Source: Nostoc sp. PCC 7120 = FACHB-418
GTDB taxonomy: Bacteria > Cyanobacteriota > Cyanobacteriia > Cyanobacteriales > Nostocaceae
Length of the DNA stretch: 32,000 bases
Direction of reading: 5' to 3'
Assembly: GCF_000009705.1 (NCBI RefSeq)
Contig: NC_003272.1
Coordinates: 840,001 to 872,000 of the forward strand
The notes below the pieces were generated by a model. It searched no databases and was not told where the DNA came from. It worked only from the letters and a program-made list of their open reading frames with translations. Numbering within the stretch: position 1 is the stretch's first letter; every line of letters begins with the position of its first letter. This document shows positions 13,843 through 15,481 of the stretch, piece by piece. Both the position numbers and the translations under genes were made by a program.

Positions 13843-13848
13843 CAATAG

Positions 13849-13890
13849 TTGATGGTTGATTGTTGATTGTTGACTGTTGGCTGTTGAATA
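13849..13890. repeat. Degenerate heptamer tandem array (STRR3-type; TTGATGG TTGATTG TTGATTG TTGACTG TTGGCTG TTGAATA)
   Basis: Six head-to-tail heptamers start 7 nt after the nrdG-like stop codon. TTGACTG is a circular permutation of ACTGTTG, the complement of CAACAGT. Confidence 0.75.
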
Positions 13891-13988
13891 TAGAACTGAC
13901 GAACTCAAATGCTCTAAGTGATCTTAATGTAGCGACTGTCTTGAAAGTCAAGCGATCGTTAACAAAAACCGGGACTCTGAACATTGAC

Positions 13989-14115
13989 GCAACTGGGGAA
14001 CGCTGCGCTAGATTCTGCGGTGGCTGGTACGGGCAAAAAGACTTGTGGCTCTTGGCTAAGATGGTAGCAGCCCGCACCAGCCACTCCGCTTCGCCGCAGA
14101 ATCTTCCCCAGTTGC
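13989..14115 (-). ncRNA. Candidate structured non-coding RNA in the IS 3' flank (possible bridge/seek-type guide RNA); strand assumed from the recombinase gene
   Basis: Helices of 12 bp (13989-14000/14104-14115), 10 bp (14011-14020/14094-14103), 8 bp (14021-14028/14076-14083) and 5 bp (14030-14034/14070-14074) are all Watson-Crick. They are separated by 10-nt bulges at 14001-14010 and 14084-14093, and the apical loop is 35 nt. The region is visibly more GC-rich than its surroundings. The overlapping ORFs on both strands look non-coding. Confidence 0.35.
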
Positions 14116-14218
14116 TGGATTTCCCGTGAAGATAAAAAAGAGCATCAAAAATTGACCCAAATGCGGCAATAGGATCATCAGGGAGAGTATTTCCAAGTAT
14201 AAAAACGGTCAATTGTGA

Positions 14219-15181
14219 TTAAGCGTTGGGAATGGGTTGTAAGTTGTCAGTAACACGCCAAGGTAAATTATCCCGAACCATTGCATTTAAAATGACTAAC
14301 ATTTTATGAACGCAAGCAGTGAGAGCTAATTTTTTCGATTTACCACGTTCGACAAGACGCTCATAAAAGGCCTTGATAACCGGATTATGACGCATAGCAA
14401 CAACAGCACCCATATAAAGAGTGGCACGAACATGAGCGCGACCGCCATTAATCATGCGCTTACCTTTGTGTTGACCACTATCATGATTGATAGGTGCAAC
14501 ACCAACTAAGCGAGAAATTTGTTTGGCAGTGAGTTGACCGAGTTCTGGCAAATCAGAAACCAGAGTTGTCGAAATAACTTGGCCAATACCAGGAGTAGTT
14601 TTGAGTAAATTAACTTTTTCAATCCATTGTTGATTGTTTTGAGTTAATTGCTCAATTTCTTGATTGAGTTGTTTGAGACGTTCGTCAAGATATTCAATGT
14701 GTGCTTCAATATCTGCCAATGCTTTACCACGGGCGCGTGAGCGTCGATTTTTTTCAGCAGTTTGCATCTCAACTAATTGTCTTCGACGACTAATTAATTC
14801 TCCTAATTGACGAGATGCTTGTGACTCAATGTTTAACACTTGAGGTTTCATTGCTTCCCCAAAGTGTGCCAATATTTGTGCATCGATAGCATCTGTTTTG
14901 GCGAGTTTACCAGTGGCTTTGGCAAAATTTCGTCCTTGACGTGGATTGATTAATGCTACTGGTAGCATTGCTGCCTGTAGTTGAATGACCAGTTCTGTTT
15001 CTAATCCTCCGGTTGCTTCTAGTACGATGAGGTTCAAATCATAAAATTTTAATTGTTCAACTAAATTAAATATTTCTAGTTCTGTATTAGCAAACTTCAA
15101 TGCTTTACCGATGGGACGGATATAAACATCGAGGGTCGCTTTGCTCACGTCAATGCCTACCCACACAGAGATGTTTTCCAT
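14219..15181 (-). CDS. IS110-family transposase/recombinase (N-terminal DEDD RuvC-like domain plus C-terminal Tnp domain with conserved Ser)
   Basis: 320 aa. The DEDD candidates are VGIDVSK (D11), LEATGG (E55) and AKTDAIDA (D97, D100). A central coiled coil is followed by TPGIGQVISTTL helix-hairpin-helix and GVAPINHDSGQHKGKR (S235), typical of IS110/IS1111 recombinases. Confidence 0.9.
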   Translation of the reverse strand: MENISVWVGIDVSKATLDVYIRPIGKALKFANTELEIFNLVEQLKFYDLNLIVLEATGGLETELVIQLQAAMLPVALINPRQGRNFAKATGKLAKTDAIDAQILAHFGEAMKPQVLNIESQASRQLGELISRRRQLVEMQTAEKNRRSRARGKALADIEAHIEYLDERLKQLNQEIEQLTQNNQQWIEKVNLLKTTPGIGQVISTTLVSDLPELGQLTAKQISRLVGVAPINHDSGQHKGKRMINGGRAHVRATLYMGAVVAMRHNPVIKAFYERLVERGKSKKLALTACVHKMLVILNAMVRDNLPWRVTDNLQPIPNA

Positions 15182-15401
15182 TTTTGAATCTCAACTATTT
15201 TGTCAAGAAGTTTTTAATTCATCCCCTTGATTTCACTCATCCTTGCCCGATGCGGACTGTATACTTTAAATGTCAGTAGTTTAAAGCTTTGACCCCGGCG
15301 ACTGTTCGAGTTCTGTCAAAGAGATTGTTGTGGTGACCCATGCTACAAAGCGGTCTTTAATGACCTAGGGTGCGACGGTCTACCACTTCTTTTAATATAC
15401 A

Positions 15402-15462
15402 AGGGTGCGTCAGTGTGATAGAACCTAACTATACTCAGAAATTATTCATACTGACGCACCCT
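15402..15462. repeat. 13-bp perfect inverted repeat (AGGGTGCGTCAGT - 35 nt - ACTGACGCACCCT) 19 nt upstream of ureE
   Basis: Seen directly. An 11/13 direct copy of the left arm (AGGGTGCGACGGT) lies at 15367..15379, allowing alternative pairing. Confidence 0.6.
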
Positions 15463-15481
15463 ACCAAACTAACGACTAATA

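Follow-up and report, generated by a model that had tools for sequence, protein, structure and literature searches.

IS621 of Escherichia coli, an insertion sequence (IS) of the IS110 group, encodes the bridge RNA-guided recombinase described by Durrant et al. (2024; PMC11208160; structures 8WT6–8WT9). According to that work, the guide RNA lies 5′ of the recombinase gene in IS110-type elements and 3′ of it in IS1111-type elements. The left target guide (LTG) reproduces the top-strand sequence of the left target together with the core, the right target guide (RTG) is complementary to the core plus the right target, and the donor loop obeys the same guide pattern as the target loop, with discontiguous pairing described for the right donor guide (RDG). 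Bridge RNAs were predicted in 85.7% of the catalogued IS110-group elements, and a left end (LE) longer than the right end (RE) was reported as a statistical tendency of this group and not as a mechanistic requirement (PMC11208160). A 2011 review, citing Choi et al. (2003), mentions IS1594 of Anabaena, which belongs to the family of IS621 and inserts into repetitive extragenic palindromic (REP)-like sequences (PMC3184786). Here we describe an element that very probably is IS1594, located at 13933–15401 on the minus strand of a 32,000-nt stretch of the Nostoc sp. PCC 7120 genome (NC_003272.1, positions 840,001–872,000), which is called the window throughout and whose coordinates are used unless stated otherwise.

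We are highly confident that this element is an intact and apparently active member of the IS110 group, that it is of the IS621 type, and that its guide RNA lies upstream of the recombinase gene. The assignment is carried by the ends and the core, the multi-copy state, the structure of the RNA together with its covariation, the covariation of guides with targets and of guides with donors, and the promoter sequence formed at the joined ends. An earlier reading of the window from its letters alone (the sequence-only reading) had correctly identified the kind of system, for which the RNA, the guides and the target are now explicit. The match to IS1594 (ISfinder, IS110 family) is by the description in the review and not by sequence: the window encodes the IS110 transposase that is present in multiple copies in Nostoc sp. 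PCC 7120, and all its copies are found in REP-like hairpins. We found no published description of a bridge RNA of IS1594 or of the 3′ module reported below. The supplements of PMC11208160 that were examined contain no mention of IS1594, Nostoc or Anabaena.

Recombinase, ends and copy number

The recombinase matches the Pfam families PF01548 DEDD_Tnp_IS110 (E 6.8e-21) and PF02371 Transposase_20 (E 4.6e-20) and scores 214.6 bits against the NCBIfam model NF033542 'IS110 family RNA-guided transposase', whose cutoff is 140. It aligns over its full length to the structurally solved transposases of ISCro4 (E 4.7e-40) and IS621 (E 2.1e-38). In the alignment with ISCro4, the residues D11, E55, D97, D100 and S235 (HDSG) fall in the motifs GIDVSK, EAT, KTDAxDA and (D/E)SG. 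The IS110 family, the DEDD-plus-serine chemistry and the residue positions had all been proposed from the letters alone and are borne out by these comparisons.

For the analysis of relatives, one genome per species was scanned, which gave 227 relatives; 80 loci were kept. Blastn of the window against the kept loci showed similarity from approximately 13928 to approximately 15410. Both flanks of the gene, which had rightly been described as non-coding, are therefore part of the element. The exact ends were obtained from an end alignment of nine relatives and nine same-genome copies, in which similarity ends at ...ACAGTCG-CT-AC. In gene orientation, the left junction reads ...ACTGACGCACC-CT-TGTATATTAAAAG... 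and the right junction ...AAGACAGTCG-CT-AC.... The CT core is the sole sequence common to both junctions, and there is no target-site duplication beyond CT. Thus, the alignment of copies, which had been recommended for defining ends and core, yielded a body of 13933–15401 with a CT core on each side and both flanks inside it, and the extent of 13891–15480 assumed in the sequence-only reading has to be corrected to these ends. Neither the repeat scan nor the junction alignment revealed terminal inverted repeats, as had been noted before; the end sequences TGTATATT... and ...ACAGTCG do not form an inverted repeat. Long subterminal inverted repeats were not found in the element by an inverted-repeat scan either.

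The exact recombinase protein is present in Nostoc/Anabaena sp. PCC 7120 and close strains under several accession numbers. Within one PCC 7120-type chromosome of 6.41 Mb (CP183817.1), the identical protein is encoded at no fewer than nine places, and all nine copies examined there were 100% identical over the exact 1,469 bp. Hence the earlier description of a single-copy element holds within the window but not in the genome. The window element moved recently. Its LE of 220 nt and RE of 286 nt do not follow the length rule of the IS110 group. This is due to a 127-nt module in the RE, since relatives without this module have an RE of 165–190 nt.

Rearranged forms of the element were also noted. 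An ENA contig of 3,440 bp (L103) joins the RE flank of the ureE-locus copy, with the radical-SAM gene, to the LE flank of another copy, with the DeoC gene (compare L086); this arrangement either arose in a culture through an IS-mediated event or is a chimera produced by assembly across the identical 1.47-kb repeat. A plasmid of Nostoc sp. C057 (L083 2354–2589) contains an internal-deletion derivative, in which the final 89 nt of the RE directly follow a recombinase fragment equivalent to window 14527–14383 and the end ...ACAGTCGCT-AC is intact.

A predicted bridge RNA in the left end

The minimum-free-energy fold of the 5′ flank contains two stem-loops with internal loops. The first is the putative target-binding loop. 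Its outer stem is formed by GUGGUAGACC and GGGUCACCAC, its 5′ loop strand contains U-CGCACCCU, which faces the target ACGCACC-CT, its inner hairpin is GGUC-AUUAAA-GACC, and its 3′ loop strand contains U-GUAG, which faces CT-AC-A at the right junction. The second, putative donor-binding loop has the stems AUCUCUUUGA/UCAAGGGGAU and ACUC/GAGU; here the 5′ strand ACAGUCGC-C faces the RE tip ACAGTCG-CT, and the 3′ strand AU-CGGG-CAAG faces CTTG-T-AT of the LE tip. The RNA runs to at least 15221, the last paired base of the outer donor-loop stem, and from the position of the −10 box (Table 1) we infer a start near 15387.

The fold is supported by covariation. Among 22 non-identical relatives, 93.5% of the cells in the proposed helices pair, compared with 33–47% when the partners are slid by one to three columns. 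A covariance model (R1) was built from the LE alignment of these 22 relatives. Applied to both flanks, a check that the sequence-only reading had suggested, R1 matches the 5′ flank only: there is a single match in the 32-kb window (15219–15403, minus strand, 212.7 bits) and none in the 3′ flank of the element. Furthermore, R1 has matches in about 45 distant relatives, which belong to Chloroflexota, Gemmatimonadota, Planctomycetota and further phyla, and these matches lie directly upstream of the recombinase gene. In the alignment derived with R1 (44 distinct diverse sequences), 26 of the 30 pairs have changes on both sides and 93.4% of the cells pair, compared with 33–51% when slid; this alignment was fitted to the model and thereby favours the structure, and guides that change together with the sequences they recognise are stronger evidence than the pairing within it.

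The location of the guide RNA in the 5′ flank, and hence in the LE, makes this an IS110-group, IS621-like element. The rule stated in the sequence-only reading, by which the RNA lies 5′ in IS110-type and 3′ in IS1111-type elements, agrees with PMC11208160, and identification of the RNA-bearing flank did, as anticipated, classify the element and render a target readable.

An Rfam scan of both flanks with E up to 10 gave a sole match, RF02234 sX15 (36.2 bits, E 0.0013, 15279–15401, plus strand). The match falls short of the gathering score of 55, and its strand is opposite to that of the recombinase. On the Xanthomonas plasmid pXCV183 (L109 1885–2019, minus strand), sX15 overlaps the left end of a truncated IS110 gene (MNGIGIDVCKAKL...) on the other strand, and R1 matches the strand opposite sX15 there. 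Rfam sX15 therefore appears to be an antisense image of an IS110 bridge RNA, and asX7, the reported complementary partner of sX15, would be the sense bridge RNA.

Covariation of guides with targets and donors

Guides of the target-binding loop differ among relatives and do so together with the DNA that flanks the respective insertion. The guide GCACCCU is found with the flanks GACGCACC-CT or AACGCACC-CT (window, L025, L033), ACACCCU with AACACACC-CT (L018, L001–L003), CCAACCU with ACCCAACC-T (14 loci including Calothrix, Microcystis and Chamaesiphon), AAGCCCCU with CCAAGCCC-CT (L014) and CCACCCC with ACCCACCC-CT (L019). The targets in the Calothrix and Microcystis relatives are hairpins with ACCCAAC-CT-AC. 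Within an insertion, guide and flank agree at 8–9 of the 9 positions in 28 of the 31 cases; the cross-class mean is 6.0. On the right side of the target, GUAGC is invariant in the LE alignment of relatives. For the donor, GCAAGGAUGAG in the RDG region is invariant in the 22 relatives, and the left donor (LD) ACAGTCG is invariant at the RE tip of relatives apart from L058, in which ACAATCG at the RE tip is mirrored by ACAAUCG in the donor guide.

An alternative explanation would be that the protein alone chooses the target, and that the matching LE segments are promoter or untranslated-region sequence or copies taken from insertion sites. The guide classes are all C-rich, so that cross-class matches already reach about 6 of 9 positions. 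However, across five classes a different guide goes along with a different flank, with recombinases that are still 68–90% identical, the matching segments are located in the internal loops of a covarying two-loop fold, and the homologous IS621 has been shown experimentally to be RNA-guided (PMC11208160). Targeting by the protein alone is therefore highly improbable, and we favour guidance by the RNA encoded in the LE.

A REP-like hairpin as target

The predicted programmed target of the window element, read from guides and junctions, is (A)CGCACC-CT-AC. CGCACC-CT is exact at seven of nine same-genome left targets; L085 matches from GCACC onwards and L087 has two mismatches. CT-AC is present at eight of the nine same-genome right junctions, the exception being L088. 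A hairpin repeat, GTAGGGTGCGTCAGT-loop-ACTGACGCACCCTAC, abuts all same-genome copies examined. When the IS was removed from the window in silico, a perfect 15-bp stem of GTAGGGTGCGTCAGT and ACTGACGCACCCTAC was restored. Since the target is situated at the end of each hairpin arm (for the unoccupied mirror target see Table 1), the element lands in intergenic REP-like hairpins. The same-genome copies were found in both loop orientations of the hairpin repeat, which is to be expected of a palindrome that offers a target in each arm. The window copy is inserted 79 bp upstream of ureE.

A heptamer array of the short tandemly repeated repetitive (STRR) type at 13846–13890, which the sequence-only reading had put forward as the natural target class, was rejected as a target. 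It is separated from the element by approximately 40 nt and also occurs in the IS-free relative L104, and the copies abut the hairpin repeat.

Several observations weigh against an IS621-type element that is directed to such hairpins by its RNA. In the Calothrix brevissima copy L004, no more than 3 of 9 positions agree between guide and left flank, and there is no hairpin, and the right junction of the PCC 7120-type copy L088 has CTTG instead of CTAC. These junctions are either off-target insertions or products of recombination between copies. Additionally, an exact empty site was not found: the two IS-free relatives examined, Anabaena sp. CCY 9910 (neighbouring gene 99% identical) and Nostoc sp. 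MS1 (95% identical), also lack the target hairpin. Reconstruction of the empty site, as advised in the sequence-only reading, thus succeeded from the window itself, which gives the 15-bp stem, but not from a relative. Finally, R1 does not detect the bridge RNA of IS621, so that the relation between the two RNAs is deduced from their common architecture and from the homology of the proteins, not from RNA sequence similarity.

Table 1. Features of the IS621-like element and its target site in the window
Feature	Position	Strand	Basis
Insertion sequence body, 1,469 bp, IS110 group, IS621-like	13933–15401	−	blastn and nine identical copies
Right junction: CT core 13932–13931, then right target AC 13930–13929	13929–13932	−	end alignment
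CT core copy, left junction	15402–15403	−	end alignment
Right non-coding end (RE), 286 nt	13933–14218	−	blastn, RE alignment
Left non-coding end (LE), 220 nt	15182–15401	−	blastn, LE alignment
Left donor (LD) ACAGTCG	13933–13939	−	invariant RE tip in relatives; matches guide ACAGUCGC
Right donor (RD) TGTAT, same as RD of IS621	15397–15401	−	junction alignment
Putative −35 box TTGACT, promoter formed only on RE–LE joining	13946–13951	−	simulated junction
Putative −10 box TATATT, junction promoter	15394–15399	−	simulated junction
Accessory rod-like hairpin module, 127 nt, three helices, two conserved one-sided bulges	13989–14115	−	folding, compensatory changes
Recombinase gene, 320 aa, DEDD (RuvC-like) domain and Ser (Tnp) domain	14219–15181	−	open reading frame, Pfam, NCBIfam
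Predicted bridge RNA, ~167 nt, target-binding loop then donor-binding loop	15387–15221	−	fold, covariation, model R1
Left target guide (LTG) UCGCACCCU	15367–15375	−	8/9 bases equal flanking ACGCACC plus CT
Right target guide (RTG) U-GUAG	15343–15347	−	complementary to CTAC(A), right junction
Left donor guide (LDG) ACAGUCGCC	15297–15305	−	equals LD plus first core base; last base mismatched
Right donor guide (RDG) region AU-CGGG-CAAG	15242–15251	−	discontiguous pairing with CTTG-T-AT of right donor
Target: ~65-nt hairpin repeat	15404–15464		inverted repeat; left target ACGCACC 15410–15404 (−)
Unoccupied mirror target CGCACCCTAC	15455–15464	+	pattern match, other hairpin arm

Putative junction promoter and proposed mechanism

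Joining of the RE to the LE across the core creates, at the sequence level, TTGACT-N17-TATATT. CTTGAC is invariant in 22 RE sequences and TGTAT(A/C)TT is kept in all relatives examined. A consensus scan found no sigma-70-like promoter on the minus strand of the integrated element.

By analogy with the experiments on IS621, from which we extend transcription, circle formation and RNA-guided catalysis to the window element, the following course can be proposed. The element would excise as a circle in which RE and LE are joined across the CT core, giving rise to the putative promoter. This promoter would drive expression of the bridge RNA and then of the DEDD/Ser recombinase. The first internal loop of the RNA would pair with the target and the second with the element's own junction, via ACAGUCGC and AU..CAAG, and the recombinase would exchange strands at the CT core.

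Comparison with IS621 and the IS1111 group

For comparison, a copy of IS621 was read from an E. coli genome; its architecture corresponds to that of the window element feature by feature. Both elements have a two-domain recombinase and a bridge RNA in the LE, in which the target loop precedes the donor loop. Their targets have the common form N7-CT-AC with a CT core, ATCAGGC-CT-AC in IS621 and ACGCACC-CT-AC in the window element, and their donors, which are almost the same, are ACAGTAT-CT-TGTAT and ACAGTCG-CT-TGTAT, respectively. The LDG of IS621 (ACAGUAUCA vs ACAGTATCT) corresponds to ACAGUCGCC of the window element, and the last base is mismatched in both. The split RDG is AU-UUG-CAAG in IS621 and AU-CGGG-CAAG here, and the junction promoters are TTGCAG-N17-TATTAT and TTGACT-N17-TATATT. 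Both elements insert into REP-like hairpins, although the target repeat of the window element is a different hairpin. Further differences are the RE, which comprises 105 nt in IS621 and 286 nt with the 127-nt structured module in the window element, an extra 5′ stem-loop ahead of the target loop, which is present in IS621 only, and the host, a cyanobacterium in one case and E. coli in the other. As a side observation on IS621 itself, the copy in E. coli 90-9280 (L230 1589–1660) contains a second, partial LE start, and the insertion point of this start lies precisely behind the left target guide of the copy itself, ATCGGGCCT. In this case the guide-encoding DNA appears to have served as target for self-insertion.

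With members of the IS1111 group (IS1111, IS4321/IS5075), which carry their seekRNA or bridge RNA in the RE, the window element has the DEDD/Ser recombinase, a long RE and, by prediction, RNA-guided targeting in common. In contrast to that group, its guide RNA is located in the LE, long subterminal inverted repeats are missing, and the structure in its RE shows no guide-like covariation.

The window provides a natural bridge-RNA system from a model cyanobacterium that is amenable to genetics, fully annotated for its ends and core, the four guide segments, the target motif and the junction promoter, and the guides of close relatives have been naturally reprogrammed to at least five targets. It may serve as a starting point for bridge-recombinase tools in cyanobacteria. 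The result is also of use for annotation, because identical 1.47-kb repeats break assemblies and may drive rearrangements. The understanding of IS110 elements is unchanged by these results; the question they raise is the role of the conserved hairpin module in the RE, and this right-end module is the only lead worth following.

A structured hairpin module in the right end

On the strand of the gene, the module folds with a z-score of −3.9. Its bulges of approximately 10 nt, CGAAGCGGAGU and AGCGCAGCGU, contain a conserved GCGnAGCG. In ten copies, 95–96% of the cells in the helices pair and 10 compensatory pairs occur. There are 14 G.U cells but 3 A.C cells, a modest argument for an RNA on the gene's (minus) strand. 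No Rfam family matches the module in the scan of the flanks with E up to 10. Long open reading frames across the 3′ flank (134 aa and 89 aa) were dismissed as genes because the gene calls enter different flanking DNA in each copy and the region evolves by compensatory pair changes.

The module is missing from the RE of many relatives (L009, L010, L012, L013, L016, L017, L058 and L059). One free-standing module was found on plasmid4 of Calothrix sp. NIES-4101 (L082 2501–2627), between a relaxase fragment and a hypothetical gene and with no IS110 element within 2.5 kb. This copy suggests that the module is able to function or move alone. Plasmid searches yielded no free-standing module beyond L082. 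A metagenome search with the pattern GGAGTGN{4,7}GTGCGGGCT gave 120 mostly chance matches with one true copy (L120), the pattern being too loose, and a scan with a model of the module (R2) over 372 kb of cyanobacterial loci, which had been chosen for carrying the IS, gave no additional free copy.

A 3′ flank that is unusually long (286 nt) and strongly structured and shows compensatory changes might be taken as the site of an IS1111-type guide RNA, in which the module would be the seekRNA or bridge RNA and its bulges the guides. Several findings speak against this. The bulges are alike in elements of three different target classes and do not covary with target class, which shows that the module is not the target guide, nor do they have an extended match to the target or to the donor ends. 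The module is missing from many otherwise intact relatives and exists once without any IS, R1 is blank in the 3′ flank, and target and donor are both explained by the 5′ flank already. We consider a guide RNA in the 3′ flank extremely unlikely and retain the assignment to the LE.

What the module contributes to the element, if anything, can be judged less firmly. It may be a hitch-hiking structured repeat that resides in a permissive part of the RE and adds nothing to the IS. The region from the stop codon to the −35 box tolerates other, unrelated inserts (L007, L019), a copy stands alone on the Calothrix plasmid, and the presence of the module is patchy among close relatives. On the other hand, the 95–96% pairing with 10 compensatory pairs occurs in IS-borne copies that differ by up to approximately 25% and therefore points to selection on the structure within the IS, and R2 detected no other free module, albeit in loci chosen for carrying the IS. 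A passenger of this kind is a serious candidate, if somewhat short of probable. That the module is an undescribed structured RNA, recruited as an accessory part by a subclade of cyanobacterial IS621-like elements, is a rather doubtful proposal that we put forward tentatively. Our best guess for the module is an accessory 3′ element that would stabilise the recombinase mRNA or block transcription from running round the circle into the junction promoter, the hitch-hiking repeat being the alternative. With an accessory RNA, the GCGnAGCG bulges would form a platform for binding of protein or RNA.

The ureE locus in related strains

The intergenic region that separates the radical-SAM activase gene from ureE forms a hot spot of small palindromic repeats (window 13843–13932 and 15404–15481). 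It comprises approximately 170 bp plus the IS in the window, 98 bp in Nostoc sp. MS1 (L107 3625–3722) and 380 bp with different hairpins in Anabaena sp. CCY 9910 (L104 3625–4004). The heptamer array at 13846–13890 is common to the window and CCY 9910. Between ureF and ureG, where the window strain has no insert, small gene pairs are found in these relatives, namely a PIN/HicB-like pair in CCY 9910 (L104 5179–5826) and DUF6888/DUF6887 in Nostoc sp. MS1 (L107 4939–5323).

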